A DNA stretch of 63,038 nt from Chitinophagaceae bacterium (GTDB lineage Bacteria; Bacteroidota; Bacteroidia; Chitinophagales; Chitinophagaceae). Each line of letters opens with the position of its first letter. Position 1 is the first letter of the stretch. The position numbers and the translations under genes are program-made. Below, piece by piece: positions 16,442 through 62,902 of this stretch. Where the stretch lies: assembly GCA_043747955.1 (NCBI GenBank), contig JAYTOF010000159.1:1-63038 (forward strand), given 5' to 3'. The notes below the pieces were generated by a model. It did not search any database. It was not told the DNA's origin and was given only the letters and a program-made list of their open reading frames with translations.

Positions 16442-16477
16442 TTTCTCCTTCCCCTTTTGAAGAAGGTTGGTATTAGG
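16442..16477 (+). repeat. Degenerate copy of 36-nt hairpin/G-tail element
   Basis: tttctccttccccttttgaagaaggttggtattagg aligns without gaps to 41601-41636 (24/36 identical). Confidence 0.55.
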
Positions 16478-17059
16478 TTATAATGCTATTTGTTTTTCAG
16501 TCATCATTTTACGCAGGTTTATTAAACCATAACGCATACGGCCTAAAGCAGTATTAATGCTGCAACTGGTTAATTCTGCTATTTCTTTAAAACTCAGATC
16601 GGCATAGTGGCGCAAAATAATTACTTCCCGTTGGTCTTCTGGCAGCATATCAACCATCTTTCTTACCCTGTCGTGGCTTTGGTTACTCATCATTTTTTGA
16701 TCAGCACCGGGTTCAGAAAAATTAAGTACTTCAAAAATATCACGGTCGTCGCTGGTTTTAATAGCCGGAGTACGCTTTACTTTTCTAAAATGATCTACAC
16801 ACATATTGTGTGCAATGCGCATGGCCCAGGGTAAAAATTTGCCTTCGTCAGTGTATCGGCCACCTTTTAAAGTGTCAATTATACGGATAAAGACATCCTG
16901 GAAAATATCTTCAGCCAGGTACTTGTCTTTTACCAGTAAATAAATAGAGGTGAAAATCTTGTCCTTGTAACGCAAAACAATGGTTGCAAGGGCATTGGCA
17001 TCCCCATCCATATATAAATGGATAAGTTGTTGGTCGGTTAAGTTGTTAAGGCATTTCAT
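16478..17059 (-). CDS. RNA polymerase sigma-70 factor, ECF subfamily
   Basis: AEDIFQDVF..WAMRIAHN..DHFRK (region 2); LPEDQREV..LSFKEIAE..SINTALGRMRY (region 4). Confidence 0.92.
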   Translation of the reverse strand: MKCLNNLTDQQLIHLYMDGDANALATIVLRYKDKIFTSIYLLVKDKYLAEDIFQDVFIRIIDTLKGGRYTDEGKFLPWAMRIAHNMCVDHFRKVKRTPAIKTSDDRDIFEVLNFSEPGADQKMMSNQSHDRVRKMVDMLPEDQREVIILRHYADLSFKEIAELTSCSINTALGRMRYGLINLRKMMTEKQIAL

Positions 17060-17382
17060 AAACTTCTACAGTTTTAGATTGTTAGGATTTTAGTAACAGG
17101 TCCAAAAAGGGTGAAAATGCGTAGAAGTCTACCAGATAGGCTTTTTGGCTTTTCATTTTTTTGGATATTGGACTGTAAAAATAAAAGATGTTTTTAAAAT
17201 AGTATGAGTACTAGTGCTTAATCTTAAAAGTTTTTTTACTTAGTAAAACTACGATACCGGTAATACACTTATACCATACATATAAAACTACAATTTGTTT
17301 TTACACCTTATTCAGTGACCATGAGCTTTAAGAATAATTTCACATATTCAGTGTAACATAATTAATGTAAGTATTTTTGGGT

Positions 17383-20262
17383 ATGGTAACTGTAAAAACA
17401 AAACAAAAGGAAGTAATTATATCCAATAAAACAGGTATTTATATAAAAGGGGCAAGGGTTCATAACCTGAAAAATGTGGATGTTACAATTCCCCGCAATA
17501 AATTAATAGTTGTAACCGGTGTTTCCGGTTCGGGCAAATCATCGCTTACAATTGATACATTATTTGCCGAAGGCCAGCGTCGTTATGCCGAAAGCCTTAG
17601 TGCCTATGCCCGTCAGTTTATGCAGCGAATGAATAAACCGGATGTAGATTATATAAAAGGGTTATGCCCGGCAATTGCCATTGAACAGAAAGTAATTACC
17701 CGCACACCCAGAAGTACAGTGGGAAGTATGACAGAAATATATGATTACCTGCGGCTGTTATTTGCCAGGGCAGGTAAAACAATTTCACCGGTGAGCGGCA
17801 GGGAAGTTAAAAAGGATGATGTTGCAGATGTGGTAAAAGCTATTGAAAATTTACCGGAAGGCGATAAGGTATTGTTATTGGTTACTTTTAAACAACATGC
17901 AAAACGTAATATAAAAGAAGAGCTGAATATATTATTGCAGAAAGGTTTTTCAAGGCTGTATTTGCTTAAAGAAATAATAAGAATAGAAGAACTGCTGGAA
18001 CCGGAAAAGAAAATCAGCATCAATAAACAGGATACAGTTTATCTTTTAGTAGACAGATTGGTAGTGAAACAATTTGATGAAGACGATAAACACAGGATTG
18101 CAGATTCTGTAAATACTGCTTTTTATGAAGGGGAAGGTGAAATGTATATAGAAGTAAATAATGATAAACTGCATCATTTCTCCAATAAATTTGAAGCGGA
18201 TGGAATTTTGTTTGAAGAACCGGTACCCAATTTATTTTCATTTAACAATCCTTTCGGTGCCTGTCCAACCTGCGAAGGATTTTCACAGATACTGGGTATT
18301 GACCCGGACCTGATCATCCCCGATAAAAGCTTAAGTGTGTTTGAAGGAGCCGTTGCCCCCTGGAAAGGAGAGAAGCTTGGTTTATGGAAAGAACAATTTA
18401 TTAAAGCTGCCAGGAAATTTGATTTCCCCATTCATAAACCAATTATTGATTTAACGGAGCAACAATCGGCTGCATTATGGGAAGGTAATGAGTACACCCG
18501 GGGGATCAATGATTTTTTTAAAGAGGTGCAACAGAATTTATATAAAGTACAATACCGTGTTTTATTAAGCCGGTATCGTGGTCGCACTTTATGTACATCC
18601 TGTAAGGGTTACCGCCTGCGTGATGAAGCATTGTATGTAAAAGTGGGGAGCAAACATATCGGACAGTTATGTCAGCTTCCGGTAAAGGATCTATACACCT
18701 GGTTCGAAAAATTAAAACTAAGTGAATATGATCAGCAGGTGGCAAAAAGAATATTAACCGAAATTCGAAACCGTATTAAAACCCTGTTGGATGTCGGGCT
18801 TGGCTATTTAACCTTAAACCGGCTGGCTAATTCTTTAAGTGGTGGCGAAAGCCAGCGTATACAGTTAACCCGAAGCCTGGGAAGTAATTTGACTAATTCA
18901 TTATACATTTTAGATGAACCATCTATTGGTTTGCACAGCCGTGATACAGAAAGATTAATAAAAGTTTTAAAAGAATTGAGAGACCTCGGGAATACGGTTG
19001 TGGTAGTGGAGCATGATGAAATGATGATGCGGGAAGCAGATCATATTATTGATATGGGCCCATTGGCAAGCCATTTGGGTGGCGAAGTGGTTGCAGAAGG
19101 CGATTATGATGAAATAATTAATAATACTGAAAGCTTAACCGGTAAATATTTATCAGGTGAATTAAAAATTGAGCCACCCAAACAGGTTCGGACATGGAAC
19201 CGCTCTGTAAAACTGGAAGGAGCCAGGCAGCATAATTTAAAAAACCTGTCGGTAGAATTTCCATTACAGGTTTTTTGTGTGGTCACCGGTGTTAGCGGTA
19301 GTGGCAAAACAACATTGGTAAAACAAATTCTTTATCCTGCCCTGCAGAAATTGAAAGGTGAATTTATAGAAAAAGCAGGTTTGCATAAATCCATAGGCGG
19401 AGAGGTGGATCAAATTGCACAAATTGAAATGGTTGATCAAAATCCAATTGGAAAATCCTCAAGGAGCAATCCTGTAACCTATATTAAAGCCTATGATGAA
19501 ATAAGAGACCTCTACAGCAAACAGCCGTTAAGTAAAATGCGGGGATTTATGCCCAAACATTTTTCATTTAATGTGGATGGTGGCAGGTGCGATGCATGCA
19601 AAGGTGAAGGAGAACAAACCATTGAAATGCAGTTTTTGGCAGATGTTCATCTAACCTGTGATGTTTGTGGCGGCAAACGTTTTAAAGAAGAAGTGCTGGA
19701 AGTAAAATACAAAGACAAAAGCATTTACGATCTACTCGATATGAGTGTTGATGAAGCGATAGAATTTTTCTCTTCCTCTTTTGGGGGTTACCGGGATGAC
19801 CGAAGGGAAGGTATGAAGTTGGGGGAGGGGGATGACATTGCAAAAAAATTACAGCCATTATGCGATGTGGGATTGGGTTATGTAAAACTGGGACAGTCAT
19901 CTGATACATTGTCCGGTGGTGAAGCACAAAGGGTAAAACTGGCTTCATTTTTAGGAAAGCCTCCCCGGATGGCCCGGTCAGATGCTGGCAAATCACAGGG
20001 AACTATCTTATTTATTTTTGATGAGCCAACTACGGGACTGCATTTTCACGACATCAAAAAATTACTGGCTTCCTTTAATGCCTTAATTGAACAGGGACAC
20101 TCAATACTGGTTATCGAACACAATACCGATGTAATAAAATCTGCTGATTGGGTAATTGATCTCGGCCCGGAAGCAGGTGATGCCGGTGGTAATCTTGTAT
20201 TTGCCGGTAAGCCGCAGGATTTAAAAAAATGTAAGGAAAGTTACACGGGTAAGTTTTTATAA
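17383..20262 (+). CDS. uvrA: Excinuclease ABC subunit A, carrying two in-frame repeat-derived insertions
   Basis: Two GVSGSGK Walker A motifs, zinc fingers (CPTC/CTSC, CDAC/CDVC), LSGGE signatures, DEP Walker B; ATG 17383 preferred to TTG 17377. Confidence 0.96.
19771..19830 (+). repeat. Compound GC-rich in-frame insertion in uvrA
   Basis: 22 aa lie between EFF and IAKKL where canonical UvrA has about 5; purine/G-rich DNA atypical of flanking codon usage. Confidence 0.6.
19960..19986 (+). repeat. 27-nt in-frame element (PPRMARSDA) in uvrA
   Basis: cctccccggatggcccggtcagatgct; 15/27 identical to and in the same frame as the 27-nt insert in GH65. Confidence 0.65.
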
Positions 20263-20292
20263 TATTATCATTAAAAATTTTATTTCTTGAAT

Positions 20293-20703: not shown

Positions 20704-20718
20704 AAAGATCAGTTTTAA

Positions 20719-22183: not shown

Positions 22184-23191
22184 ATGAAGGCAATTATTCC
22201 AGTAGCGGGTGCAGGTACTAAGCTTCGTCCGCATACCTATACCCAGCCCAAAGCATTAATTCCCCTGGCAGGAAAAACCATACTTAGTATTATTGTAGAT
22301 CAGCTGCATGAAGCCGGAATAAAAGATTTTATTTTTATTATTGGTTACCTGGGAGAAAAGATACAGGATTATGTTCAGGAAAAGTACCCTCATTTACACT
22401 GTCATTTCATTCTTCAAAGTGAGCGTTTTGGAATTGGACATGCAGTAAACCTTACCAGGGATATAGTAGGCAAAGAAGAGGTATTGATCGTTTTAGGAGA
22501 TACGATTGCCGAATACGATGTAAAAGAAGTAATGGATTCTCCTTTTTCTATGTTAGGGGTTAAGAAAGTAGATGATCCCAGGAATTTTGGTGTAGCCGAT
22601 ATTGAAGAGGATGGTTTTATAAGCCGTGTTGTAGAAAAACCCTCAATCCCAAAAAGTAATATGGCACTGGTAGGGGTTTATAAAATTAAAGAAACAAATT
22701 TTTTGTTTTCCTGCCTTGAAAAAATAATTGAAACAGAAACAAAAAGTTATGAGGAGTATAGTTTAACCGATGCCCTTGAATGTATGATTCAGAGTGGAGC
22801 CAGGTTTCAGTCATTTAAAGTGCAAAATTGGTTTGACTGTGGCAAAAAAGAAACTTTACTGGAATCAAATGCAACTTTGCTGAAAAAATTTGGCGGTAAT
22901 ATCTCAGAAGACCATCATTTTGAAAACACCATAATCATCCCGCCCGTTTCTATTGCTGACGGGTGTGATATAAAAAATTCAGTTATTGGCCCCAATGTTG
23001 CCATTGGAGAAAATTCTTCCCTTAATCATGCTATCATCAAAAATTCTATAATCGGGTCCTATTCAAACCTCTTTGAAATCGTTTTAAGCAATTCTCTTAT
23101 CGGCAGCGATGCCGAAGTAAAAGGTGTAAACCGCAGCTTAAACATTGGTGATAATACAGCCATTGACCTTAGTGGCGGAAGCAGAACGTAG
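22184..23191 (+). CDS. Sugar-phosphate nucleotidyltransferase (glucose-1-P thymidylyltransferase long-form-like)
   Basis: PVAGAGTKLRPHT..PK, LGDT, VEKP, WFDCG; C-terminal hexapeptide beta-helix. Confidence 0.85.
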   Translation: MKAIIPVAGAGTKLRPHTYTQPKALIPLAGKTILSIIVDQLHEAGIKDFIFIIGYLGEKIQDYVQEKYPHLHCHFILQSERFGIGHAVNLTRDIVGKEEVLIVLGDTIAEYDVKEVMDSPFSMLGVKKVDDPRNFGVADIEEDGFISRVVEKPSIPKSNMALVGVYKIKETNFLFSCLEKIIETETKSYEEYSLTDALECMIQSGARFQSFKVQNWFDCGKKETLLESNATLLKKFGGNISEDHHFENTIIIPPVSIADGCDIKNSVIGPNVAIGENSSLNHAIIKNSIIGSYSNLFEIVLSNSLIGSDAEVKGVNRSLNIGDNTAIDLSGGSRT

Positions 23192-27853: not shown

Positions 27854-27950
27854 TGTCAAGTTAAGCCTGCCTACCGTACAGGCAGGCATGTTGAAACATA
27901 TTTGAATATAAAAAGTTTGGTAAAAGGACTTCGGCAAGCTCAGTAAGTCA
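27854..27950. repeat. Decayed REP-like inverted doublet with a nested 21-nt palindrome (27866-27886)
   Basis: gcctgcct-accgtac-aggcaggc perfect 8-bp stem; flanking arm tgtcaagttaag|catgttgaaac is an imperfect inverted match (12/23) to acttcggcaagctcagtaagtca. Confidence 0.6.
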
Positions 27951-41069: not shown

Positions 41070-41109
41070 AGGGGCGGTCCAAAAATATTGGACGCCTCTT
41101 CTTTTTTTT
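41070..41109 (+). terminator. Intrinsic terminator / stabilising hairpin after susD
   Basis: aggggcggtccaa-aaata-ttggacgcctct followed by a T-run. Confidence 0.65.
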
Positions 41110-41137
41110 GCTAAATTCAAATCCTGAAAATAATAGC

Positions 41138-44100
41138 ATGTATCATAAACCTTCAAGCTTTCTTTTATTTTCATTTTGCATCGGTATCCTTAGTTTTTCC
41201 TGTACCAATAAGAAAGATGTCGAAGAACGGCTTTTTCAACTGATGGATAAAACCGGGATTGATTTTAATAATGTAGTGGAAGATGACAGCCTGGAAAACG
41301 GTTTTTTATTTCGTAATTTTTATAATGGAAACGGTGTAGCAATCGGGGATATCAATAATGATAGCCTGCCGGATATATTTTTTACATCAAATGTTGGGGA
41401 AAATAAATTATTCCTCAATAAGGGCGGTTTTATCTTCGAAGATATTTCTGACAGGGCCGGCATTATTAAAGACGATAAATGGAATACCGGGGTTGTGTTT
41501 GCTGATGTGAATGCAGATGGATGGCTTGATATCTATGTTTGCGCATCCGGCCATATGGGAACCGGAACCAGAAAAAATAAACTCTACATAAATAATCACC
41601 TTTCTCCCTCTCCAGATGGAGAAGGCAGGGGTGAGGTTACATTTACCGAACAGGCATCAAAATTTGGCCTTGATATTTCAGCCTATACCACCCAGGTTTC
41701 TTTCTTTGATTATGACGGCGATGGAGACCTGGATTTTTTTATGATCAACAATAGTCCTATACCCATTAACCAGTTAAATTATGCCAATAAAAGAGATACG
41801 CCTGACAGCTTATGGAAGATTGCAGATTTCTTAAAAGGGGGTGGTGATCATCTGTATAAAAATGATAACGGGCATTTTACGGAAGTTACCAGTAGCGCCG
41901 GTATTCATGGCGGACTGATCAGTTTTGGTTTGGGTGTTTCCGTAACAGATATAAACTTAGATGGCTGGCCGGATATTTTTATTTCAAACGACTCTTACGA
42001 ACGGGATTATTTATACATCAACCAACAGAACGGAACCTTTAAAGATGAAATGGAAGACTGGTTTCAACATACCAGCTTTTCTTCGATGGGTGCCGATGTG
42101 GGGGATATCAATAATGACGGCTATCCCGATCTGTTTACGACCGATATGTTGCCGGTTAATGATTACCGTTTAAAAACCACCGGTTCGTTCGACAATATCA
42201 GCCTGTTTACCGATAAGTTAAAATCGGGATTTTATTATCAATACACTAAAAACTGCCTGCAACTGAATAATAAAAACGGAAAATTTATTGATGTAGCCAG
42301 ATACAGTGGCGTGGCCGCTACCGACTGGAGTTGGGGCGCTTTAATATTTGATATGGATAATGACGGATGGAATGACCTGTATGTTTGCAATGGCGTAAAC
42401 CGGGATGTTACGGATCTTGATTTTACCGATTTTTTTGCCAATGATGTCAATCAGGAAATGGTTTTATCAGGTAAAAAGAAATCGGTTGATAAAATATTAC
42501 AAAAAATACCCCGTACGCCATTGCCCAATAAAGTTTACCGGAATAACAAAAATCTGCACTTTGCAGATGCTGGTAATGAATGGGGATTAGCACAGCCATC
42601 CTATTCAAACGGGGCTGCCTATGCCGATCTTGATAATGATGGCGACCTTGACCTGGTGGTCTGCAATCAAAATCAACCGGCCTTTATTTATAAGAACCGG
42701 TCAAGGGAGATCAACCAAAATAATTTTATCAGTTTTTTGCTAAAAGGAAAAGATAATAACCCTTTTGCAGTTGGCAGCAAAGTACAGGTCTTCAGTAAAT
42801 CAGAAATTTTAACACGTGAATTATTTCCCAGCAGGGGTTTTCAATCATCGGTTGATTATAAATTGGTTTTTGGATTGGGAAAAAATACAATAATTGATTC
42901 TGCTGTTATTGCCTGGCCCGACAGAACAACCAGCACTTTTATTGCACCCCAAATAAATAAACTACATGTTGTTGATCAGTCTGTAGCAACGGTTACCGTT
43001 GAAAAAATTAAGGAAGACATACCTGTGTCAACAACCTTCTCCATGCAGGCCAGTAGTTTTGAAAAGCACCAGGAAAATAATTATGTTGATTTTTATAATG
43101 AGCGATTGGTTCCCCATGCACTTTCACGGGAGGGCCCAAAGGCAACAACAGCCGATGTTAACGGCGATGGCCGCACCGATATTTTTATTGGTGCAGCTGA
43201 AGGCGGAACCGGACAACTTTATCTGCAAACCCCTTCAGGCACATTTATAAAAAAGGAAGAAAAGCATTTTAAACAGCCATACCGGTATGAAGATGTAGCC
43301 ACACTATTCTTTGATTGTGATACCGATGGCGATATGGATCTGCTGATTTGCCCTGGGGGAAATAACCACCTGCTTAACAGCCCGGAACTAAGATTACGAC
43401 TGTTTAAAAATGACAGTAAAGGAAATTTTACATTGGATGATGCAGCCTTTCCCTTTTTAAACATGAATATTTCGGTTGTCATAGCCAATGATTTTAATGA
43501 AGATGGTTACCCCGATCTTTTTATTGGTGCCAGAAGTTACCCCGGAGTTTATGGAAAAGATCCGCAGAGCGCATTATTTGTAAATGATGGTAAAGGACAT
43601 TTCACTGATATAGCAAAAAACAGGAATCCGGATATTGCAGCTATAGGCATGGTGACCGGGGCAGTTTGGGCAGACATTGCCGGCGACAAACGAAAAGAGC
43701 TGATCATTGTTGGCGAGTGGATGTCGCCCAGGGTATTCTCTTTTAATAAAGATCATTTTGATGAAGTAAAAACAAACCTCAGTGATCATTATGGCTGGTG
43801 GCAAACCATTGCAACAGCAGATGTGAACAATGATGGAAAAGAAGATTTGATACTGGGAAATATCGGCGAAAATTTTTACCTGGATCCAACCTCTGAAAGG
43901 CCGGCAAAATTATGGATGAATGATTTTGATAAGAACGGAGAGATGGATAAGCTGATGACCTATACCATTGAAAGTAAGGACATGCCGGTATTTTTAAAAC
44001 GGGATGTGCAGGAACAGATTCCCGGCCTTAAAAAACAAAACCTGAAGCATAGCGATTATGCAACCAAATCTATTCAGGAATTATTTGCACCGGAGTTGAT

Positions 44101-44509
44101 CAAATCGGCTGTGGTAAAGCAATTCAATTACACGCCCTCCTGCGTGGTAATCAACCAGGGCAATGCTCAATTTTTAATGCAGCAATTACCGGTGATGGCG
44201 CAACTATCCTGCATCAATGCCATTCAACCGGTTGATGTGAATGGAGATGGATTTGTTGACCTGGTAACCGGCGGAAACCAGTTTGGATTTTTACCACAGT
44301 TTGAAAAACTGGATGGCAGTTTCGGAGATGTGCTGATCAATGACGGCAAAGGAAATTTTGTATGCCTGGATTCGAAGAAAACCGGGTTAAATTTAAGAGG
44401 CGAATTAAGGGATATTGCACTCATTAAAAATCCGAAAGGCAGTTTTTTATTGTTTTTACAGAATAATGAATTTCCTGCTTATTATAAATTAAATGGCCTA
44501 TCAAAGTAA
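41138..44509 (+). CDS. FG-GAP/VCBS-repeat + ASPIC/UnbV (CRTAC1-like) lipoprotein, paralog 1
   Basis: Lipobox ILSFSC; many D-x-[DN]-x-DG-x-x-D Ca-binding repeats; central ASPIC/UnbV-like segment (SRGFQSS...FGLG); ATG 41138 preferred to TTG 41108. Confidence 0.85.
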   Translation: MYHKPSSFLLFSFCIGILSFSCTNKKDVEERLFQLMDKTGIDFNNVVEDDSLENGFLFRNFYNGNGVAIGDINNDSLPDIFFTSNVGENKLFLNKGGFIFEDISDRAGIIKDDKWNTGVVFADVNADGWLDIYVCASGHMGTGTRKNKLYINNHLSPSPDGEGRGEVTFTEQASKFGLDISAYTTQVSFFDYDGDGDLDFFMINNSPIPINQLNYANKRDTPDSLWKIADFLKGGGDHLYKNDNGHFTEVTSSAGIHGGLISFGLGVSVTDINLDGWPDIFISNDSYERDYLYINQQNGTFKDEMEDWFQHTSFSSMGADVGDINNDGYPDLFTTDMLPVNDYRLKTTGSFDNISLFTDKLKSGFYYQYTKNCLQLNNKNGKFIDVARYSGVAATDWSWGALIFDMDNDGWNDLYVCNGVNRDVTDLDFTDFFANDVNQEMVLSGKKKSVDKILQKIPRTPLPNKVYRNNKNLHFADAGNEWGLAQPSYSNGAAYADLDNDGDLDLVVCNQNQPAFIYKNRSREINQNNFISFLLKGKDNNPFAVGSKVQVFSKSEILTRELFPSRGFQSSVDYKLVFGLGKNTIIDSAVIAWPDRTTSTFIAPQINKLHVVDQSVATVTVEKIKEDIPVSTTFSMQASSFEKHQENNYVDFYNERLVPHALSREGPKATTADVNGDGRTDIFIGAAEGGTGQLYLQTPSGTFIKKEEKHFKQPYRYEDVATLFFDCDTDGDMDLLICPGGNNHLLNSPELRLRLFKNDSKGNFTLDDAAFPFLNMNISVVIANDFNEDGYPDLFIGARSYPGVYGKDPQSALFVNDGKGHFTDIAKNRNPDIAAIGMVTGAVWADIAGDKRKELIIVGEWMSPRVFSFNKDHFDEVKTNLSDHYGWWQTIATADVNNDGKEDLILGNIGENFYLDPTSERPAKLWMNDFDKNGEMDKLMTYTIESKDMPVFLKRDVQEQIPGLKKQNLKHSDYATKSIQELFAPELIKSAVVKQFNYTPSCVVINQGNAQFLMQQLPVMAQLSCINAIQPVDVNGDGFVDLVTGGNQFGFLPQFEKLDGSFGDVLINDGKGNFVCLDSKKTGLNLRGELRDIALIKNPKGSFLLFLQNNEFPAYYKLNGLSK
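41601..41636 (+). repeat. 36-nt hairpin/G-tail element in frame (LSPSPDGEGRGEV)
   Basis: tttctccctctccagatggagaaggcaggggtgagg; 32/36 identical to 44997-45032. Confidence 0.75.
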
Positions 44510-44536: not shown

Positions 44537-47500
44537 ATGCACGTAATTAAAAAATATACCAGCCTTTTTTGTTGCCTGTTGCTGTTTATTCTTTCGTGCA
44601 AAACAAAAAAAACCGCCCCGCCATTATTTGAACTCCTGAAAAATTCGGGTATTAATTTTGTGAATACCGTGCAGGATAATGATTCCATCAATATCCTTAA
44701 TTACCGCAATTTTTACAATGGTGCCGGTGTTGCTGTGGGCGATCTGAATAATGATGGTTTGGCAGATGTTTTTTTTACTGCCAATCAAGGCAGTAATAAA
44801 TTATTTATAAATAAAGGCAATTTGCAGTTTGAAGACATATCTGCCAGAGCAGGGTTTAACAATAAGATGCAATACAGTACGGGTGTGGTTTTTGTTGATA
44901 TCAACAACGATGGCTGGCTGGATATTTATGTTTGCAATGCCGGAAATATGCAGGATGCTGCCCTGCGAAAAAATCAGTTATTCATCAATAACCACCTTTC
45001 TCCTTCTCAAGGTGGAGAGGGCAGGGGTGAGGTTAGTTTTACAGACAGTGCGGCACAATATGGCCTTGACAATGATGGGTACAGCACACAGTCCAGCTTT
45101 TTTGATTATGATATGGATGGCGACCTGGATTGTTTTATCATCAATAACAGTCCGGTACCGGTAAGTAGTTTGGGCTATCCCAAACAAAGAGACCTGCATG
45201 CCAACGAATGGAAAGTGGCTGATCATTTAAAAGGTGGTGGCGATCATTTATACCGGAATGATAACGGGCATTTTACCGAAGTAACGCAACAGGCCGGTAT
45301 CCATGGTTCATTGATGAGTTTTGGATTGGGTGTAACGGTAGGAGATATTAATGGCGATAACTATCCCGATGTTTATGTGTCGAACGATTTTTTTGAAAGG
45401 GATTATTTATACATCAACCAAAAAAACGGAACTTTTAAAGATGAGCTGGAAGAAAGGCTGAAACACAACAGCTATGCCTCCATGGGTGCCGATTTTGGCG
45501 ATATCAATAATGATGGATACCCCGAGATCTTTACAACTGATATGCTGCCTGCCGATGATTACCGGCTAAAAACAACGTTAAGTTTTGATGATATAGATCA
45601 ATACCGGCTTAAAGAACGTAACGGATTTTTTCACCAGTTTCTGCAAAACACCCTGCAACTGAATGACGGGCACGGAAAATTCAAAGATATTGCCAACTTT
45701 AGCGGGGTGAATGCATCGGAGTGGAGCTGGGGAGCTTTGATGTTTGATGCAGATAATGATGGTTATAATGACCTGTATGTTTGTAATGGCATTTACCGCG
45801 ATCTGACCAACCAGGATTTTTTAAGTTTTGATGCCAATGAAATTAAAGAGCAGATGATGGTGTCGGGCAAAAAAAATCTGAGTGAACTGGTAAAAAGAAT
45901 CCCTTCCATAGCGGTGCCCAATAAGATGTACCGTAACCTGGGCAACCTGCCTGTCGGACAGGCAGGTTTAAAATTTGCTGATGAAGGCATGAACTGGGGG
46001 TTCACCGAAAATTCTTTTTCAAACGGAGCAGCTTATGCCGACCTTGATAATGACGGAGACCTTGACCTGGTTGTAAACAATGTAAATGAACCGGCATTTG
46101 TTTTTAAAAATAACAGCCGTGTGCAACATAAAAATAATTTTATTGGGGTTAACCTGAAAGGCGGCTCACAAAATACTTTCGCCATTGGCAGTAAAATTTT
46201 TATTTACAAAGGCAAAGAGATTTACAGCCGGGAAGTAATGCCCAGCCGCGGATTTCAATCATCAGTTGAATATCGCCAGGTAATCGGTATTGGTGAATCG
46301 GGTCAGGTTGATTCAATGCTGATCATCTGGCCCGACCTTAGTTTTACAAAAACGATCCATCCGGCGATCAATACTTATATCAGTTACAGTCAGCCGGTCA
46401 ATGGTGAAAAAATTAAAAAAGCAAAAGCAATTGATTCTGAAACGCTGTTTGAAAAGGTAACTTCCGCTTTTGAAAAAAATGCCGATGATGATTTTATTGA
46501 TTTTTACAGTGAACGCGGCATACCACAAATGAATTCGCATGAAGGGCCAAAAGCAGCGGTGGCAGATGTGAATGGGGATGGGCTGGATGATGTTTATATT
46601 GGAGGTACCGTTTTAAAACCCGGACAATTATACCTGCAACAAGCATCGGGATCTTTTATTAAAAAAGGAGAAGACATCTTTAAACAGTCAAGTGGTTTTA
46701 CAGATGCTGCCAGTTTGTTTTTTGATTGTGATAAAGATGGCGACCAGGATCTGATGGTTACTGCTGGTGGCAATGAAGTCTTACCTTTTAGTGCTGAATT
46801 ACAGCATCGGTTATTTATAAATGATGGACAGGGTAATTTTAAAATTGCACCAACAGCCTTCCCTGCAAATAAAGACAATATCGGCGTTTCCATTGCCCAT
46901 GATTTTGACGGAGATGGCGACCAGGACCTGTTTACTGGCGGAGGCTTTGTAAGCCGTGGATATGGAGTAACACCGCTGAGCCATATTTATTTGAATGATG
47001 GCAAAGGTAACTTTAGTGATATGCCTGCCGGCAAATGCAAAGGAATTACAGATGCAGGAATGGTAACCGGTGCAGTTTGGGTAGATATGGATGGAGATAA
47101 AAAAGAAGAACTGGTGATCGTGGGAGAATGGATGAGTCCTAAGATATTCAGGTATACCAACATTGGTTTTACAGAGATACAAACCAATCTTTCTTCCATT
47201 TCGGGTTGGTGGCAAACAGTTGCTGCAGCTGATTTAAACGGGGATGGAAGAACTGACCTGGTACTCGGTAATTTTGGAGAAAATTTTTCACTGAAAGCAG
47301 ATACTGAGAATCCGGTTAAATTATTTTTAAATGATTTTGACAACAATGGCCAGATTGATAAAATACTGACAAGAACCGTGGATGGCAAAGACAAACCGGT
47401 TTTTATGAAAACCGAACTGGAAAGCCAGTTGCCGTTTCTGAAAAAGCAAAATCTGCACAATGCGGAATTTGCAACAAAGAATATGCAGGACCTGTTCAGC

Positions 47501-47935
47501 AAAGCACAATTGGAAAAAGCGGTCATCAGGCAAATCAATTATTCATCTTCCTGCATCGCATTCAATAATGGGAAAGGGAATTTCAGCATAAAAAAACTGC
47601 CGCTGCCTGTTCAGCTTTCTTCTGTAAAAAAAATATTGCCTTTAGATGTTAATGCAGATGGATTCATCGATCTGGTGATGGGTGGAAACGAATTTGGATT
47701 TCAACCACAGCTGGGCCGGTTAGATGCCAGCGATGGAGATGTATTGATAAACGATGGGAAAGGTAATTTTATGGTGATGGATCAAAACCTTTCCGGTATT
47801 GCATTACCGGTGCAGTTGCGGGATATTGTTTTAGTAAAACGAAAAGGGAATGCGGCTGTTTTGTTTTTACAGAATAATGAATGGCCTGTTTTATACGAAT
47901 TGAAAATAAAAACAAATAAACCTTTAAAAAAATAA
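44537..47935 (+). CDS. FG-GAP/VCBS-repeat + ASPIC/UnbV lipoprotein, paralog 2
   Basis: Lipobox LFILSC; same repeat architecture as paralog 1. Confidence 0.85.
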   Translation: MHVIKKYTSLFCCLLLFILSCKTKKTAPPLFELLKNSGINFVNTVQDNDSINILNYRNFYNGAGVAVGDLNNDGLADVFFTANQGSNKLFINKGNLQFEDISARAGFNNKMQYSTGVVFVDINNDGWLDIYVCNAGNMQDAALRKNQLFINNHLSPSQGGEGRGEVSFTDSAAQYGLDNDGYSTQSSFFDYDMDGDLDCFIINNSPVPVSSLGYPKQRDLHANEWKVADHLKGGGDHLYRNDNGHFTEVTQQAGIHGSLMSFGLGVTVGDINGDNYPDVYVSNDFFERDYLYINQKNGTFKDELEERLKHNSYASMGADFGDINNDGYPEIFTTDMLPADDYRLKTTLSFDDIDQYRLKERNGFFHQFLQNTLQLNDGHGKFKDIANFSGVNASEWSWGALMFDADNDGYNDLYVCNGIYRDLTNQDFLSFDANEIKEQMMVSGKKNLSELVKRIPSIAVPNKMYRNLGNLPVGQAGLKFADEGMNWGFTENSFSNGAAYADLDNDGDLDLVVNNVNEPAFVFKNNSRVQHKNNFIGVNLKGGSQNTFAIGSKIFIYKGKEIYSREVMPSRGFQSSVEYRQVIGIGESGQVDSMLIIWPDLSFTKTIHPAINTYISYSQPVNGEKIKKAKAIDSETLFEKVTSAFEKNADDDFIDFYSERGIPQMNSHEGPKAAVADVNGDGLDDVYIGGTVLKPGQLYLQQASGSFIKKGEDIFKQSSGFTDAASLFFDCDKDGDQDLMVTAGGNEVLPFSAELQHRLFINDGQGNFKIAPTAFPANKDNIGVSIAHDFDGDGDQDLFTGGGFVSRGYGVTPLSHIYLNDGKGNFSDMPAGKCKGITDAGMVTGAVWVDMDGDKKEELVIVGEWMSPKIFRYTNIGFTEIQTNLSSISGWWQTVAAADLNGDGRTDLVLGNFGENFSLKADTENPVKLFLNDFDNNGQIDKILTRTVDGKDKPVFMKTELESQLPFLKKQNLHNAEFATKNMQDLFSKAQLEKAVIRQINYSSSCIAFNNGKGNFSIKKLPLPVQLSSVKKILPLDVNADGFIDLVMGGNEFGFQPQLGRLDASDGDVLINDGKGNFMVMDQNLSGIALPVQLRDIVLVKRKGNAAVLFLQNNEWPVLYELKIKTNKPLKK
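44997..45032 (+). repeat. 36-nt hairpin/G-tail element in frame (LSPSQGGEGRGEV)
   Basis: tttctccttctcaaggtggagagggcaggggtgagg. Confidence 0.75.
45946..45966. repeat. 21-nt palindromic element in frame in paralog 2
   Basis: cctgcctgtcggacaggcagg; with flanks forms a perfect 12-bp inverted repeat (45944-45968); adds 7 aa relative to paralogs 1 and 3. Confidence 0.85.
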
Positions 47936-53788: not shown

Positions 53789-53800
53789 GGTTCAAATCAT

Positions 53801-55421: not shown

Positions 55422-57668
55422 ATGAAATGTTTTTTTTCTGTAGTATTTATATTCATTACCTGTATGGCTTACTCGCAAAATAAGTTCCCGTTTCAAAACC
55501 CAAAGCTTACTGTTGAACAAAGGGTAAAAGATCTGTTATCCCGCATGACCGTAGCAGAAAAAGCCGGTCAGTTAAACCAGTTGAATGGTGGCGCTTTTAC
55601 CGGTCCGGCGTCAAACAATGCAGGGCAGGGCGAAAAAACGCAAATGGTAAAGGATGGACGGGTGGGCTCACTGTTGAATGTAACCGGTGTTGCCGATACC
55701 CGGGCAATACAGCAAGCAGCCGTGCAGAGCCGCCTGGGAATACCATTGATCTTTGGTTATGATGTGATTCATGGTTACAAAACAATCTTCCCAATACCGC
55801 TGGCCGAAGCCTGTAGCTGGGATCTGCCAGGCATTGAAAAAAATTCTTCCATCGCAGCAAAAGAAGCAGCTGCAGCGGGCATACACTGGACCTTTGCGCC
55901 CATGTGTGATATCAGTAATGACCCACGCTGGGGCCGTGTAATGGAAGGTGCAGGTGAAGATCCATATTACGGTGGATTGGTTTCGGCAGCCAGGGTAAAA
56001 GGATTGCAGGGTAACTTAAATGATAATGAACATATTCTCTCCTGTGTAAAACATTTTGCGGGCTATGGTGCTGTTGAAGCCGGGCGTGAATATAACCAGG
56101 TAGATATTAGCCGTGTTATGTTGTGGAATAAATATATGCCACCATACAAAGCTGCTGTTGATGCCGGAGCTGCTACAGTAATGAATGCATTTAATGTTTT
56201 GGATGGTATACCGGCAAGTGCCAATAAATTTTTAGTAACCGATGTATTAAAGAACAAGTGGGGCTTTAAAGGTTTTATGGTCAGCGACTGGGCATCTTTT
56301 AAAGAGATCATTATACATGGTAATGCTGCCGATGGAAAAGAAGCTGCACTAAAAGCCATGCAGGCAGGCAGTATGATGGATATGGAAAGTAAGGTTTCGG
56401 AAAAATATTTACCCGAACTGGTCAAAGAAGGAAAAGTTACCCTGGCACAGCTGGATGACGCTGTTGGAAGGGTTCTGCATCAAAAATTTAAATTGGGTTT
56501 ATTTGAAGATCCTTTTAAATTCTGTAATGAACAAAGAGAAGCAACTACTTTATTTTCGGCTGCCAACAGGGCTGTTGCAAGAACAGCTGCGGAAAAATCA
56601 ATCGTGTTATTAAAAAATACCCGCCTGCCGGGGCAGGACAATAATGTGTTGCCACTGGATAAAAATAAAAAAATTGCACTCGTAGGTTTTTATGCAGGCA
56701 GCAAGGATGATATGTTTGATTTTTGGGTAGCACAGGGAAAAAGTGATGACGCTGTTTCTGTTCTTGAAGGTTTGAAAAATAAATTCAGTAACCTGAGTTT
56801 TTGTAATGGCTACAAAGCAGATAATACTACCTCTGAAACATTAATTAACGAGGCAGTACAAAATGCCGGTATAGCTGATGTAATTATAGTAAATATTGGT
56901 ATCAGCGGTAAAATGGCAGGCGAAGACAGATCAATTGCTTACCCGGTGATCTCTGATGGTCAGATCGCTTTACTGAAAGCTTTACAGCAAACCAGAAAAC
57001 CAGTTGTGGCATTGGTTTCAAGCGCAAGACCATTAATACTTACACAGGCCGAGCCATTGGTAAACGCCCTTGTACAATGCTGGATATTGGGAACTGAACA
57101 CGGCAATGCCATTGCTTCTATGCTAACAGGAGAATTTAATCCTTCTGCCAAAACAGTAATGTCTTTTCCTTATGCAGTTGGGCAAATACCGGTTTACTAT
57201 AATCATTTTAATACAAGCCGGCCCGATCCAACTGATGACTTTGGTAATTGGTTCAGCCGGTACAGGGATATACCCAATGAACCTTTATACCCTTTTGGTT
57301 ATGGTCTGAGTTATACAACTTATGCATACTCCGGGTTAACACTTTCTTCATCAGCTATAAAAAAAGAAGATAAACTGAACGTTACCGTTTCTGTAAAAAA
57401 TTCCGGAACTGTTGATGGAGAAGAAACTGTACAGCTTTATATCAGGGATTATGCAGCTTCTGTTGTAAGGCCCGTAAAAGAATTGAAGGCATTTAAGAAA
57501 ATAATGCTTAAGGCAGGAGAAACGAAAGAGGTCAATTTTATACTTACTAAAAATGACCTGTCATTTTTTGATGCCTATGGTAACAGTTTGATTGAACCCG
57601 GAAAATTCAGTGTGTTTGTGGGTGGAAATTCGCGTGATGTAAAGCAGGCAGATTTTGAATTGAAATAA
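55422..57668 (+). CDS. bglX: GH3 beta-glucosidase (BglX type)
   Basis: Signal peptide; DVIHG, DPRWGRVMEG, VKHFAGYG, VSDW nucleophile, PFGYGLSYT, FN3-like C-terminus. Confidence 0.92.
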   Translation: MKCFFSVVFIFITCMAYSQNKFPFQNPKLTVEQRVKDLLSRMTVAEKAGQLNQLNGGAFTGPASNNAGQGEKTQMVKDGRVGSLLNVTGVADTRAIQQAAVQSRLGIPLIFGYDVIHGYKTIFPIPLAEACSWDLPGIEKNSSIAAKEAAAAGIHWTFAPMCDISNDPRWGRVMEGAGEDPYYGGLVSAARVKGLQGNLNDNEHILSCVKHFAGYGAVEAGREYNQVDISRVMLWNKYMPPYKAAVDAGAATVMNAFNVLDGIPASANKFLVTDVLKNKWGFKGFMVSDWASFKEIIIHGNAADGKEAALKAMQAGSMMDMESKVSEKYLPELVKEGKVTLAQLDDAVGRVLHQKFKLGLFEDPFKFCNEQREATTLFSAANRAVARTAAEKSIVLLKNTRLPGQDNNVLPLDKNKKIALVGFYAGSKDDMFDFWVAQGKSDDAVSVLEGLKNKFSNLSFCNGYKADNTTSETLINEAVQNAGIADVIIVNIGISGKMAGEDRSIAYPVISDGQIALLKALQQTRKPVVALVSSARPLILTQAEPLVNALVQCWILGTEHGNAIASMLTGEFNPSAKTVMSFPYAVGQIPVYYNHFNTSRPDPTDDFGNWFSRYRDIPNEPLYPFGYGLSYTTYAYSGLTLSSSAIKKEDKLNVTVSVKNSGTVDGEETVQLYIRDYAASVVRPVKELKAFKKIMLKAGETKEVNFILTKNDLSFFDAYGNSLIEPGKFSVFVGGNSRDVKQADFELK
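56620..56637. repeat. 18-nt variant of the CCTGCC...GGCAGG element, in frame in GH3
   Basis: cccgcctgccggggcagg; yields LLKN-TRLPGQ-DNNVLPL inside the normally compact LLKNxxxxLPL motif. Confidence 0.65.
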
Positions 57669-57756: not shown

Positions 57757-57770
57757 TGCAATCGTTTGCA
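57757..57770. promoter_or_regulatory. Putative LacI operator upstream of GH65
   Basis: TGCAATCGTTTGCA. Confidence 0.65.
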
Positions 57771-57773
57771 AAC

Positions 57774-57803
57774 AACCCGTGTAGCTTTCTTACACGGGTT
57801 TTT
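57774..57803 (+). terminator. Intrinsic terminator after GH3
   Basis: AACCCGTGTA-gctttct-TACACGGGTT followed by TTT. Confidence 0.8.
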
Positions 57804-57852
57804 GCTTTAATAGCGTTACTTTAGTCTTTTAAAAATTGCTAACAATTTTGCT

Positions 57853-59910
57853 ATGAAGAAATTGATATTCGCCTCACTTCTTTTTTTAAATGTGCAGTCA
57901 TTCTCACAGTCCGTTGATACCTGGAAAATAAATGCTAATTCCATTGATCCCAATAATTATTATGGTGTTACGGTTGCCAATGGTATGATCGGTATTGTTT
58001 CTGCTCCCGAGCCATTTAAAGTAAGAGAGGTAGTGCTGGCCGGTGCTTATGATCTGTATGGCCGTGGCCGGGTAAGTAATTTTTTAAAAAGTTTTAACCT
58101 GTTGAATGCCTACCTGGATATTGATGGAAGAAGTGTGGATGCAAAAAATGTATCGGGCATGAAACAGGAACTGGATATGAAAAAAGCAAGCTTTACCACT
58201 TCTTTTGAATTTGGCGATAAGGCAACTGTTTCCTATACTTATTATTCACTTCGCCAGTTGCCTTATACGGTGCTGATGGATGTGAACATCACCGCTAAAA
58301 AAGATATTGTTATTAATGGCGCCAGTGTTATGGAAGCGCCGGATGCGTTAAAAGATGTTCAGAATTATTACAACGAAATAGACCGGCCGCATGTAGTGAT
58401 CAGTTTGCTTACTTCAACTGCAAAAAGTCCGACGGGTAAATTGCAGATGTGTGCCAGTAATACCTTTTTATTCAGTGAGGCACATGGTAATGAACCAAAA
58501 GTGATTCATGAAATGTGGGATAACAATATGCACCTGATGAAGTTCATCAAAAAAATAAAAGCGGGTGAAACGTATCGTTATTCCATTGTTGGATCTTCTA
58601 TCACTTCGGCACATCATCCCGATCCATTGAATGAAGCAGAACGAGCAACCATCTTTGCAAAACTGGAAGGAAGAGAAAGATTGATCAGCTTTCATACCAA
58701 AGCCTGGGATGAATTGTGGAAGAGTGATATTGTGATTGAAGGCGATGATCAAAGCCAGCAGGATGTGCACAGCATGCTGTATCATCTTTATTCATTTGCA
58801 AGAGAAGGAACCGCTTTATCGCCTTCGCCCATGGGATTAAGCGGTCTGGGTTACAATGGTCATGTTTTTTGGGATACCGAATTGTGGATGTTCCCTTCTA
58901 TTTTGGTACTTCAACCCGAGATGGCAAAAAGCATGATGGAATACCGCTTTCAGCGGCTGGATGCGGCAAAGAAAAATGCATTCAGTAAAGGGTATAAGGG
59001 AGCCATGTTTCCCTGGGAGAGTGCAGAGACCGGTGTTGAAGAAACGCCCGTTTGGGCTTTAAGTGGCCCCTTTGAACATCACATTACCGGCTGTGTTGCT
59101 TTTGCAGCATGGAATTATTATTGTGTTACACAGGATAAACTTTGGCTCAGGGAAAAAGGCTGGCCCATATTAAGCGCTACCGCCGATTTTTGGGCAAGCC
59201 GTGTAGAACGTAAAGGTACCGGCCAATACGATATTAATAATGTAGTGGCCGCTGATGAGTGGGCTGAGAATGTAAACAACAATGCATTTACCAATGCCGT
59301 GGCAAAAAGCAATTTGCAGAATGCAACAGAAGCTGCAAAAATTTTAGGCATTATACCCGATGCCGACTGGATGCTGGTGGCAAATAATATTCCCATTTTA
59401 AAAATGCCTGCCCGGCCCGGACAATCGGACGGGGCAGATGGCGTTACCAGGGAACATGCTACTTACAATGGCGAAGGCATTAAACAGGCCGATGTTAATT
59501 TACTTTCTTATCCTTTAAAACAAATTACTGATCCTTTGCAAATTAAAAAGGACCTGGCTTTTTATGAAACCCGGATACCCAACGAAGGAACACCGGCCAT
59601 GACCCAGGCAATATTTTCATTGTTATATGCAAGGCTTGGAGAAAGTGACAAAGCATTTCATTGGTTTAAAGATGCTTATACTCCCAACCTGAATCCGCCT
59701 TTTAGGGTTATTGCCGAAACAAAAGGGGGTACCAATCCATACTTTGCAACAGGTGCCGGCGGGGTTATTCAAAGTGTATTGATGGGCTTTGGAGGGCTGG
59801 ATATCACTTCAACAGGTATTATACAAATAAAACCGGTTTTGCCAAAACAATGGAAAAGCTTAACCATTACAGGTGTTGGGCCTCAGAAAAAAACGTATAT
59901 TGCCAAATAA
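57853..59910 (+). CDS. GH65 glycoside hydrolase (secreted; probably hydrolase-type alpha-glucosidase)
   Basis: Signal peptide; YNGHVFWDTE, GAMFPWES, EHHITG, AADE catalytic acid, IKQADV. Confidence 0.88.
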   Translation: MKKLIFASLLFLNVQSFSQSVDTWKINANSIDPNNYYGVTVANGMIGIVSAPEPFKVREVVLAGAYDLYGRGRVSNFLKSFNLLNAYLDIDGRSVDAKNVSGMKQELDMKKASFTTSFEFGDKATVSYTYYSLRQLPYTVLMDVNITAKKDIVINGASVMEAPDALKDVQNYYNEIDRPHVVISLLTSTAKSPTGKLQMCASNTFLFSEAHGNEPKVIHEMWDNNMHLMKFIKKIKAGETYRYSIVGSSITSAHHPDPLNEAERATIFAKLEGRERLISFHTKAWDELWKSDIVIEGDDQSQQDVHSMLYHLYSFAREGTALSPSPMGLSGLGYNGHVFWDTELWMFPSILVLQPEMAKSMMEYRFQRLDAAKKNAFSKGYKGAMFPWESAETGVEETPVWALSGPFEHHITGCVAFAAWNYYCVTQDKLWLREKGWPILSATADFWASRVERKGTGQYDINNVVAADEWAENVNNNAFTNAVAKSNLQNATEAAKILGIIPDADWMLVANNIPILKMPARPGQSDGADGVTREHATYNGEGIKQADVNLLSYPLKQITDPLQIKKDLAFYETRIPNEGTPAMTQAIFSLLYARLGESDKAFHWFKDAYTPNLNPPFRVIAETKGGTNPYFATGAGGVIQSVLMGFGGLDITSTGIIQIKPVLPKQWKSLTITGVGPQKKTYIAK
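59407..59433 (+). repeat. 27-nt in-frame element (PARPGQSDG) in GH65
   Basis: cctgcccggcccggacaatcggacggg; ctgccc/gggcag stem (59408-59437); related to uvrA 19960-19986. Confidence 0.65.
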
Positions 59911-59913
59911 TTT

Positions 59914-60462: not shown

Positions 60463-60512
60463 CTTGTATTCCATACTTTTTTATACATTTTAATAAAGCA
60501 CAAATTATTTTT

Positions 60513-61844
60513 ATGCGAATAGTACTCATTACTATTGCAGCAGCCTGTATATTATCGGCCTGCAATACAAAAAAAGATTATGAAAAAATTATTCATGATC
60601 CGATGTTATTTTCAAATACTGTACATGAATTGAACCAGGTGGTGATGGGCAATAATTTCAGCCCGATAGTCGCATCCCGCAATTATGCCTATGCCAGCAT
60701 AGCAGCTTATGAAGTTATGGCAGCAGGAAATTCAGATAAATATTTTTCATTGGCCGGACAACTTCACGGCCTGTCAGATCTTCCTAAACCCGAACCAGGC
60801 AAAAAAATTGATTTTGAACTGGCAGCTATCATTGCTTATTCAAAACTGGGCGAAGCCGTTACATTTCCCGAGGGCAGTATGCATGAATATACTGACAGTA
60901 TTAAAAACCTGGCAAAGGAACACGGAATGACAGCTGAAGTTTTTAAAAACAGTATTGCATTTGCAGACACCGTATCAGCTGTAATATTAAGATGGAGTAA
61001 AAAAGATAATTACCTGCAGTCAAGAACTTTTCCCAGGTACAATGTAATTGATACACCGGGCAGATGGGTGCCCACACCACCTGCATATACCTCTGCCATG
61101 GAACCTCATTGGAATACGATCAGGGCAATGGTAATGGACAGTGCATCGCAATTTATTACACCCAGGCCTCCGGTTTTTAATATGACCGAAAAAAACAGTG
61201 TCTATTACAAAGAGGTAATGAAGGTTAAAAATGCGGTAGATAGTTTAACGGATGAACAAAAACACATAGCTGAATTCTGGGACGACAATCCGTTTAAACT
61301 GAATGTAAGCGGGCACATGATGTTTGGTACAAAAAAGTTTTCACCTCCCGGCCACTGGATGAGCATTGTAGGCATTGCTGCAAAAAAAGCAAACTATGAT
61401 TTTGCCGGAACAGTTTTTGCGTATGGCATTACAGCCATTTCTCAATTTGATGCCTTTATACATTGCTGGGATGAAAAATACCGGAGTAATTATGCCAGGC
61501 CCGAAACAGTGATCAATAAATATGTTGACCAGAACTGGACGCCTTTTTTGCAAACACCTCCTTTCCCTGAATATACCTGTGGACATTCAACTGTTTCGTC
61601 TGCAAATGCCGAAGCATTAACCTATGTATTTGGCGATAATTTTGTGTATACCGATACCAGTGAACTGGAGTTTGGCATTAAAAGCAGGTCATTTACTTCT
61701 TTCAGAAATGCAGCCATCGAAAATAACTGGGCCCGTTTTTACGGTGGTATCCACTTTCATAATTCATGCCTGGTAAGCACAGAATATGGGAAAAAAGTAG
61801 GTGAGTTCATTATTCAGAAACTTAAACTTAGAAAAAATAAATAA
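60513..61844 (+). CDS. Vanadium-dependent haloperoxidase-like / PAP2-superfamily lipoprotein
   Basis: Lipobox ILSAC; K-x6-RP (KYRSNYARP), PPFPEYTCGHS, R-x5-H (RFYGGIH). Confidence 0.85.
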   Translation: MRIVLITIAAACILSACNTKKDYEKIIHDPMLFSNTVHELNQVVMGNNFSPIVASRNYAYASIAAYEVMAAGNSDKYFSLAGQLHGLSDLPKPEPGKKIDFELAAIIAYSKLGEAVTFPEGSMHEYTDSIKNLAKEHGMTAEVFKNSIAFADTVSAVILRWSKKDNYLQSRTFPRYNVIDTPGRWVPTPPAYTSAMEPHWNTIRAMVMDSASQFITPRPPVFNMTEKNSVYYKEVMKVKNAVDSLTDEQKHIAEFWDDNPFKLNVSGHMMFGTKKFSPPGHWMSIVGIAAKKANYDFAGTVFAYGITAISQFDAFIHCWDEKYRSNYARPETVINKYVDQNWTPFLQTPPFPEYTCGHSTVSSANAEALTYVFGDNFVYTDTSELEFGIKSRSFTSFRNAAIENNWARFYGGIHFHNSCLVSTEYGKKVGEFIIQKLKLRKNK

Positions 61845-61901
61845 AGGAATTAAAAGAAACAAATGTTTCAATAATTCATTCAGCATTTAAAATTAAAAAG
61901 T

Positions 61902-62831
61902 ATGCGAAAAATAAATTTTATTGTAATACTGCTTACGATTTTTTATAATACAGCTGCACAAACGGATCTGGACGGACTGATGATGGAAAAAAACTATTTC
62001 TGTGTGGGCCTGACAGCCGGTAAAAGTAGCTGGAAAAATTATTGGGAGGGAACAACGAAAAGAGATAATGCCAACCTGGGCAGGGTGAGTGCTACTCACG
62101 CCATGCTCATGGGTAATTATGGTATTACCGGAAAATTGAATGTGCTTTTTGGCTTGCCCTATATTAAAACAAAAGCAAGTGCCGGGCAATTGGCGGGCCA
62201 GAAAGGCTTACAAGACCTCTCTTTATTTATCAAATGGCAGGCCTGGGATAAACATATAGGAAAGGGGCATGTAAAAACATTTCTAACAGCAGGTTATGCT
62301 TTTCCTGTTTCAAATTACACGCCCGACCTCTTGCCACTCTCCATTGGATTACATAGCAAGAACAGTTTGTTACGGTTGATGGTAGATTATCAGCGAAACA
62401 ACTTATTTGCTACCATTTCGGGCAGTTATGTGTACCGATCAAATGTAACTTTGGACAGAAATACGTATTATACAACCGAATTGCATTATACCAATGAAGT
62501 AAAAATGCCGGATGCTTCTCAATTTAATTTCAGGGCAGGTTATCGCAGCAGCACCTGGATATTTGAAGCCATTCTTGATAAGTGGACAACCCTGGGCGGT
62601 TTTGATATCATTAAAAACAATATGCCCTTTGTAAGTAATAAAATGAATGCAACCACACTGGGCCTTCATGTAAAATACGATACCGATTTTGTGAATGGTC
62701 TTTCTTTTGTTGCAGATGGCAATACAGCTATTGCCGGCAGAAATGTTGGACAAAGTACCGGCTATAGTGCCGGTATATTTTACATTCTTGATTTTACTAA
62801 AAAGAAAAAAGAAACTAAAAAAACAAAATAA
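61902..62831 (+). CDS. Putative outer-membrane beta-barrel protein
   Basis: Signal peptide, alternating amphipathic strands, GLQDLSL..K, terminal YILDF plus basic tail. Confidence 0.6.
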   Translation: MRKINFIVILLTIFYNTAAQTDLDGLMMEKNYFCVGLTAGKSSWKNYWEGTTKRDNANLGRVSATHAMLMGNYGITGKLNVLFGLPYIKTKASAGQLAGQKGLQDLSLFIKWQAWDKHIGKGHVKTFLTAGYAFPVSNYTPDLLPLSIGLHSKNSLLRLMVDYQRNNLFATISGSYVYRSNVTLDRNTYYTTELHYTNEVKMPDASQFNFRAGYRSSTWIFEAILDKWTTLGGFDIIKNNMPFVSNKMNATTLGLHVKYDTDFVNGLSFVADGNTAIAGRNVGQSTGYSAGIFYILDFTKKKKETKKTK

Positions 62832-62876
62832 AACCTTGTAAAAATAATAAAATACAAGTGATTTAAAAACGCTGCA

Positions 62877-62902
62877 AAGTCCACTTCAGGGGAATTAGGG
62901 GT
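62877..62902 (+). repeat. Short hairpin + G-tail element
   Basis: aagtccacttcaggggaattaggggt; GC island in AT-rich intergenic DNA with the same stem-loop-then-G-tail layout as the 36-nt element. Confidence 0.35.

Follow-up and report, generated by a model that had tools for sequence, protein, structure and literature searches.

How tiny palindromic repeats spread without a transposase has long been an open question for BoxC, CGTC repeats, Rickettsia palindromic elements (RPE) and small dispersed repeats (SDR), and it is raised again by a 63,038-nucleotide stretch of Chitinophagaceae DNA (contig JAYTOF010000159.1, hereafter the window), in which three types of such palindromes recur, several of them translated in conserved proteins. 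The window is contig C159 of its own genome, G000, an assembly of 3.1 Mb that is 72% complete and has 38% GC. The palindromes are short insertions; those of types 1 and 3 flank the genes of two small nuclease cassettes, which in our judgement rather probably spread them in trans. The partner genes, a small GIY-YIG nuclease for type 1 and a DUF559 nuclease for type 3, lie outside the window, in which the preliminary description of this DNA had rightly seen no mobiliser; the single system that it proposed gives way to two or three recently active systems of the repeat-plus-cognate-enzyme kind.

That the palindromes are insertions is shown by the empty sites in relatives. The host genes in the window are uvrA, two FG-GAP/ASPIC paralogs, one GH3 and one GH65 gene, with SusC/SusD genes, which suggest Bacteroidota, also present, and the closest comparison is with the sister species G023, which is about 91% identical to G000 over the aligned parts of the first 1.56 Mb compared; the sister comparison covers 1.88 of the 3.9 Mb of G023. 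All ten sites named in the preliminary description were found in the sequence, all on the forward strand, and its statement that coding copies lie in frame where paralogs or family motifs are shorter holds for every one of them, since all seven coding inserts are missing from orthologs. The 21-nt type 1 palindrome at 45946..45966, in frame in the FG-GAP/ASPIC gene 44537-47935 and read as LPVGQAG, is present in G023, has an empty site in eight of nine homologous loci and shows a hairpin folding z of -4.9. An 18-nt variant at 56620..56637, in frame in the GH3 gene 55422-57668, is likewise present in G023, and its six amino acids are missing from the single non-sister ortholog (L403) and the single paralog (on C306) that aligned. 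The 27-nt type 2 copy at 59407..59433, in frame in the GH65 gene 57853-59910, is missing from all nine orthologs, G023 among them. Type 3 occurs as solo arms, each a BoxC/PIT-like hairpin with a G tail, at 41601..41639 in the FG-GAP gene 41108-44509 and at 44997..45035 in the paralog 44537-47935. These two copies occupy one homologous site with a net 33 nt, agree at 35 of 39 nt and are missing from nine of nine homologous loci (the comparison for 44997 included G023); either independent insertion or gene conversion may have placed them there. The gene 44537-47935 is itself 76% identical to its G023 counterpart, against the 91% genome average, a divergence that suggests allele exchange or transfer.

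The remaining two coding inserts are older and lie in uvrA. At 19960..19986, in the signature helix/Walker B interval, a decayed 27-nt type 2 copy encodes nine amino acids that are common to G023 and missing from the other genus uvrA orthologs shown (of 29 aligned). At 19771..19846 (right boundary approximate), a decayed nest in which a type 3 remnant encloses a type 2-like piece is present in G023 and makes the protein 10 amino acids longer than the empty orthologs shown from the same alignment, two of the orthologs shown carrying a solo type 3 at this site. Both inserts are gaps against solved UvrA, with a 17-residue gap against Thermotoga maritima UvrA at 19771. At least four more sites with lineage-specific GC-rich in-frame inserts were seen among the uvrA orthologs L022-L050, so that uvrA is a repeated insertion target.

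Comparison of the sister genomes indicates recent movement. Eight of 35 comparable G000 copies have no G023 copy and 18 of 44 G023 copies have no G000 copy, several of these differences being messy larger replacements. About 11 of the sister-pair gaps match the element in length exactly, and two exceed it by one base; a gap of element length implies insertion with no target duplication, and the target-site duplication typical of miniature inverted-repeat transposable elements is not seen for type 1 copies in these gaps. In other genomes, 69 of 125 junctions fall between a purine and a pyrimidine and another 39 are G^G or C^C, and the empty sites have no sequence in common with the insert. The dispersed, recently active, non-autonomous insertions postulated at the outset are thus borne out by the empty orthologous sites and by the copy differences between G000 and G023.

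The units also recur elsewhere in the genome, failing which the preliminary description would have given up its proposal. A strict type 1 pattern finds 37 copies in G000 (71 when two substitutions are allowed) and is present in 71 of 120 genomes of the genus, with none for the reversed-pattern control; these genus genomes are kin, so their counts here and below are not independent. Position weight matrices (PWMs) trained on the sister genome, which miss decayed copies such as that at 19960, recover 129 type 1/2 copies in G000 (52 coding; 3 control matches), and for type 3 they recover 39, of which 19 are coding, with 4 matches in the control. A first census pattern for type 3, which gave 60 control hits, was too loose and was dropped in favour of the PWM. 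The expectation of many copies genome-wide is therefore upheld, with about 70 coding copies recovered, but extrapolation from the window (about 350) is too high, the window being several-fold richer. As had been noticed, types 1 and 2 have common ends, of the form CCYGYCY...RGRCRGG; their lengths peak at 20, 21, 22 and 27 nt, and type 1 is palindromic with a four-base periodicity. The restriction to one lineage, in contrast, did not survive: a sequence search found the exact 21-mer at no fewer than 122 loci, and the matches listed fall in about eight phyla, one of them archaeal (Bacteroidota, Patescibacteria, Nitrospirota, Omnitrophota, Chloroflexota, Planctomycetota, a delta proteobacterium and a Woesearchaeote). 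Type 1 is also carried by isolates of Arenibacter, Maribacter and Terrimonas, and the 20-mer occurs at 54 viral-contig loci.

The link of type 1 to a nuclease comes from two small genes of one GIY-YIG clade in G000, intact on C205 and interrupted by a stop codon on C20, both of which have an intact tRNA-Leu on one side and, on the other, a partial copy of it that holds the 20-mer. The clade proteins are 77-83 amino acids long and 31-37% identical to the GIY-YIG proteins of G000 that are flanked by a repeat termed B; the predicted model, at a predicted local distance difference test score of 96, has a GIY-YIG fold nearest to UPF0213 and Slx1. Among 30 GIY-YIG loci in five genomes, type 1 lies nearby in three, all of this clade. 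With an alignment of the three clade proteins as query, and thus by protein sequence alone, 80 of 377 metagenome loci were retrieved, 71 of them distinct, and in 64 of these 71 a type 1 copy lies within 250-300 bp of the clade gene; over similar lengths, there are 77 copies near the gene and 3 far from it. The copies within the partial tRNA sit in the D-loop, the anticodon arm or the T-loop, and an intact tRNA stands at 54 of 60 scanned metagenome loci, 53 being tRNA-Leu. Outside the query genomes, the clade gene occurs in 12 genomes of the genus, each of which has at least three type 1 copies, versus 33 of 105 others. Total GIY-YIG or Y1 counts, used as predictors, give generic correlations of 0.2-0.5 only. 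The clade gene was not found in viral contigs. Insertion into working tRNAs or tRNA introns was considered and rejected, as no tRNA was called across the junction after removal of the element, the copies lying in partial duplicates (3 of 60 intergenic copies vs 14 of 3000 control positions); Rfam returned one tRNA and nothing else on four G023 loci. By eye, 12 other tRNA-linked GIY-YIG loci, some in tandem, each have their own GC-rich palindrome in a partial tRNA copy (L407, L408, L410, L412, L413, L415, L416, L418, L422, L425, L427 and L431).

Type 3 keeps comparable company. Among 31 DUF559 loci, an inverted type 3 lies upstream in 20 and a direct type 3 downstream in 24 (two overlap), compared with 2 of 935 control windows. 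DUF559 is present in 68 of 71 type 3-positive genomes versus 20 of 49 type 3-negative ones, and the rank correlation of 0.71 among these related genomes exceeds the 0.2-0.5 of other pairs. Many of the cassettes lie in frame within long housekeeping proteins, with their arms translated as linkers like the window's LSPSQGGEGRGEV; from their motifs we take the hosts to be MetRS, LeuRS, MetH, Acs and MCM-like proteins, and the G000 orthologs of MetRS, MetH and Acs are empty of the cassette. G000 has one DUF559 cassette in frame in a 1308-residue MCM-like protein (C147:1900-5826), and relatives have up to two in one MetRS or MetH.

Type 2, present in 30 of the 120 genus genomes, is more frequent where a sister GIY-YIG clade occurs (13 of 24 vs 17 of 96 genomes). 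Its ends and polarity match those of type 1, and a related GIY-YIG protein is its likely, putative partner. In viral contigs, type 2 matches were mostly GC-rich chance matches and were discounted; 9 of 120 have a type 2-like interior, with no GIY-YIG gene nearby.

How the elements relate to reading frame bears on how they move. The preliminary description had regarded unit lengths in multiples of three as a property of the system, a view at odds with the 20-nt copies, which are the commonest and one of which frameshifts a Y1 gene on C99 at a site that is empty in G023. Coding copies make up 23 of 33 21-mers versus 8 of 45 20-mers (p 5e-6), 77% of the genome being coding interior, and the eight coding 20-mers lie in unbroken frames, seven of them reading LxAGRQ. 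Insertion is thus frame-blind, and the coding bias arises as selection sorts the lengths. Coding 21-mers in G000 and G023 run 29 sense to 5 antisense, and across phyla 37 of 54 loci with a single open frame read LP(A/T)GQAG and none reads LPVRQAG; since most other frames encode cysteine, selection at the peptide level is the simplest cause of the dominant reading. Between co-directional genes there are 14 sense and 3 antisense copies, partly shared between genomes and some within short genes, a lean that may reflect a transcription-linked bias. With GC skew as the guide to replication strand, a bias of 23 of 35 emerged, which was set aside as confounded by gene direction.

The variants of type 1 suggest that it moves as one oriented unit. 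About a third of the exact 20-mers (268 in 121 genomes) are altered in a single arm (27 of the 75 listed, by manual count), and a change in both arms is found once in 268 against about 8.7 expected, a shortage which implies that the element is copied as a polar unit and which rejects independent addition of two arms. On one of the strands a G-C or G-T pair is retained, as might be expected if the hairpin is read from a single strand. Two other ideas about type 1 were discarded: general targeting of hairpins (one of eight junction-folding tests at p 0.04, stem counts near expectation), and an ScmA motif within the 20-mer, whose methylated C does not coincide with the variable position.

Taken together, these associations, from which alone we infer mobilisation, make it likely that the nucleases move the repeats. 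The nuclease would recognise its own hairpin on one DNA strand, namely the strand keeping the G-C or G-T pair, and would nick; host repair would then copy or ligate the hairpin at a new nick, and selection would retain those copies whose added loop is rich in Pro/Gly and lacks cysteine. A wider form of this proposal, to which we give somewhat less than even credence, is a class of transposase-free mobile DNA in which GIY-YIG/Vsr-like nucleases of 80-130 residues copy their own 20-40 nt hairpins across phyla and archaea, with DUF559 mobilising BoxC/PIT. If so, few known mobile elements would be as small as the type 1 20-mer, which would steadily supply proteins with new loops.

Several points weigh against mobilisation by the nucleases. 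GIY-YIG and PD-(D/E)XK nucleases are hydrolases not known to have a strand-transfer step, and adjacency could mark a favoured target of the enzyme rather than its substrate. Eighteen genus genomes, several about 100% complete, have at least five type 1 copies with no clade gene detected, and by the strict pattern DUF559 is also present in the 20 type 3-negative genomes counted above. Many of the metagenome loci are related cassettes at tRNA-Leu, so these counts too are not independent, and the type 2 association is a lean at genome level only. No empty allele was found among own-strain contigs, which drop rare variants; contigs from runs X1 and X2, which may be the source sample, bridge 56620 and 59407 and show no difference. 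A Caulobacter DUF559 protein has moreover been interpreted as a repair enzyme (PMC12907096).

In the main rival explanation, a separate templated polymerase or ligase would write the palindromes as repair patches at breaks, and they would accumulate beside the nucleases because these cut there. We regard this as unlikely, at roughly one chance in five expressed loosely, yet it accommodates much of the data, namely the blunt junctions without duplication, the nesting of type 1 in other repeats, in attC-like sites and in itself (tandem forms also occur), the many copies in genomes without a detected clade gene and the identity of the sequence across phyla. A general patcher would not be expected, however, to use a separate palindrome for each tRNA-linked GIY-YIG subclade, as at the 12 loci scored by eye, and the version in which arms are added independently runs against the shortage of double variants. 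Purely local template switching or slippage, with no dedicated enzyme, could produce the four-base periodicity, the palindromy and the tandem and nested forms, but it is largely refuted by the empty sites, in which nothing of the insert's sequence is found. The exact 21-mer also lies at unrelated sites in many phyla and the link to specific genes is tight, and this explanation seems to us highly improbable.

A RAYT/IS200-type Y1 transposase that spreads the palindromes, as for REP/REPIN, had been the lead of the preliminary description, and it has some appeal, as G000 has four Y1 genes, and HUH chemistry is compatible both with insertion that leaves no target duplication and with polarity of a single strand. 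The lead nevertheless came to little, and we consider it improbable: the Y1 genes of G000 are flanked by other repeats, the copy on C99 is itself frameshifted by the type 1 20-mer, six of seven window copies have no GTAG tag, Y1 counts correlate with type 1 counts at a rho of 0.20, and five type 1-positive genomes, one of them a single-contig 100% genome, have no Y1. No more persuasive, and if anything slightly less so, is the idea that the host keeps the palindromes as functional elements (RNA hairpins or protein-binding sites) and has domesticated the cassettes, as proposed for Ssn in Neisseria. The sense lean between co-directional genes and the strong conservation of the type 1 sequence are in its favour, whereas patchy presence, fast turnover, the decay of older copies and the gene-breaking copy are not what it predicts. 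As to the Y1 genes themselves, the four in G000 (on C300, C167, C39 and C99) have their own short palindromic flanks.

Nuclease-driven spread has its nearest precedent in Ssn. In PMC11893778 (Chenal et al. 2025; NTS/SRM repeats), Ssn GIY-YIG proteins cut single-stranded DNA beside their own hairpin repeats, and repeat mobility is put forward as a hypothesis; type 1 resembles this arrangement in that a small single-domain GIY-YIG gene is flanked by a cognate hairpin which is also dispersed in the genome. It differs in being a bare 20/21-nt palindrome off the SRM consensus and without the GTC tag (the consensus has no match at seven window sites and 7 matches genome-wide vs 8 in the control), and in lying in a partial tRNA-Leu copy and in coding frames; the word tRNA does not occur in that paper. 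A fourth, GTC-tagged repeat with a TTCGACAAGCTCA core, which the published SRM consensus missed, occurs at 27930 in the window and at C50:6870-7300 and C197:5128-5600 in G000, where it flanks another GIY-YIG group in an Ssn-like layout.

Type 3 has the C-rich stem, loop, G-rich stem, 3-nt spacer and G-rich tail of BoxC/PIT/TM, the repeat described by Holder et al. 2015 (PMC4666352), with inverted pairs also occurring. At 41601 and 44997, the best window copies, there are six mismatches to the TM consensus, which in G000 has 5 matches at four mismatches and 28 at six, against 0 and 1 in the control. By the same account, every BoxC copy of E. coli K-12 lies between genes and no gene for mobility was found there; type 3, in contrast, is translated here and flanks DUF559. 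REP/REPIN-RAYT systems likewise comprise 20-40 nt palindromes beside a cognate gene, with intragenic copies, uvrA included, and GTAG or CGTC tags, as described by Di Nocera et al. 2013 (PMC3733652), whereas here the units are single, the partner is not a HUH transposase and the GTAG/CGTC tag is missing from most window copies (one chance GTAG, one TGTC neighbour). RPE are translated in frame in unrelated genes, as are the window palindromes, but as summarised in PMC10969869 they are about 150 bp, restricted to one genus and without a named partner gene; the present units measure 18-39 nt, and those of type 1 occur across phyla. SDR5 of cyanobacteria inserts into HIP1 (PMC4390886), and no such target is seen here. 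Intragenic palindromes (PMC3733652, PMC10969869) and GIY-YIG/hairpin pairs (PMC11893778) are thus already known. In the literature, searched mostly at the level of listings and supplements aside, we found no type 1 sequence, no tRNA-nested GIY-YIG/palindrome pair and no pairing of DUF559 with BoxC. The cyanobacterial SDR (Elhai et al. 2008) reportedly are mobile units of 21-27 nt with precise insertion.

The pairing of two repeats with named nucleases of 80-130 residues means that a single small gene and a single oligonucleotide suffice to test how spread without a transposase works. The pairing also explains why LPAGQAG/LPAGRQG and Pro/Gly-rich loops recur in proteins that are unrelated, and it directs attention to new small nucleases specific for structure or sequence.

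Other copies and repeats are of lesser weight. In the window, a 21-nt intergenic type 1 copy at 27866..27886 lies within a 69-nt block missing from G023. The preliminary description had counted two further pieces as relatives of type 3, and both sequences are present: that at 16442..16477, intergenic and common to G023, is a weak, decayed match with nine mismatches to the BoxC/TM consensus and stands above the lowest PWM threshold only, while that at 62877..62902 is a possible decayed piece, unconfirmed, having no TM match within 13 mismatches and no sister alignment spanning the site. A PWM match at 22939 was taken as native coding sequence. Several 7-nt tandem repeat families, some with type 1 inserts, are found in intergenic DNA of G000, and repeated intergenic units, presumably attC-like, that contain many palindromes of type 1 and other kinds lie at L126:5950-14200, L141:9850-12300 and C150:2550-2850 of G000. 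A family of 18-nt perfect palindromes with a GATAGCTATC core has about 20-30 copies in G000 (for example C20:12000, C83:23935 and C185:1058); it is polymorphic relative to G023, and it too occurs in a partial tRNA copy.

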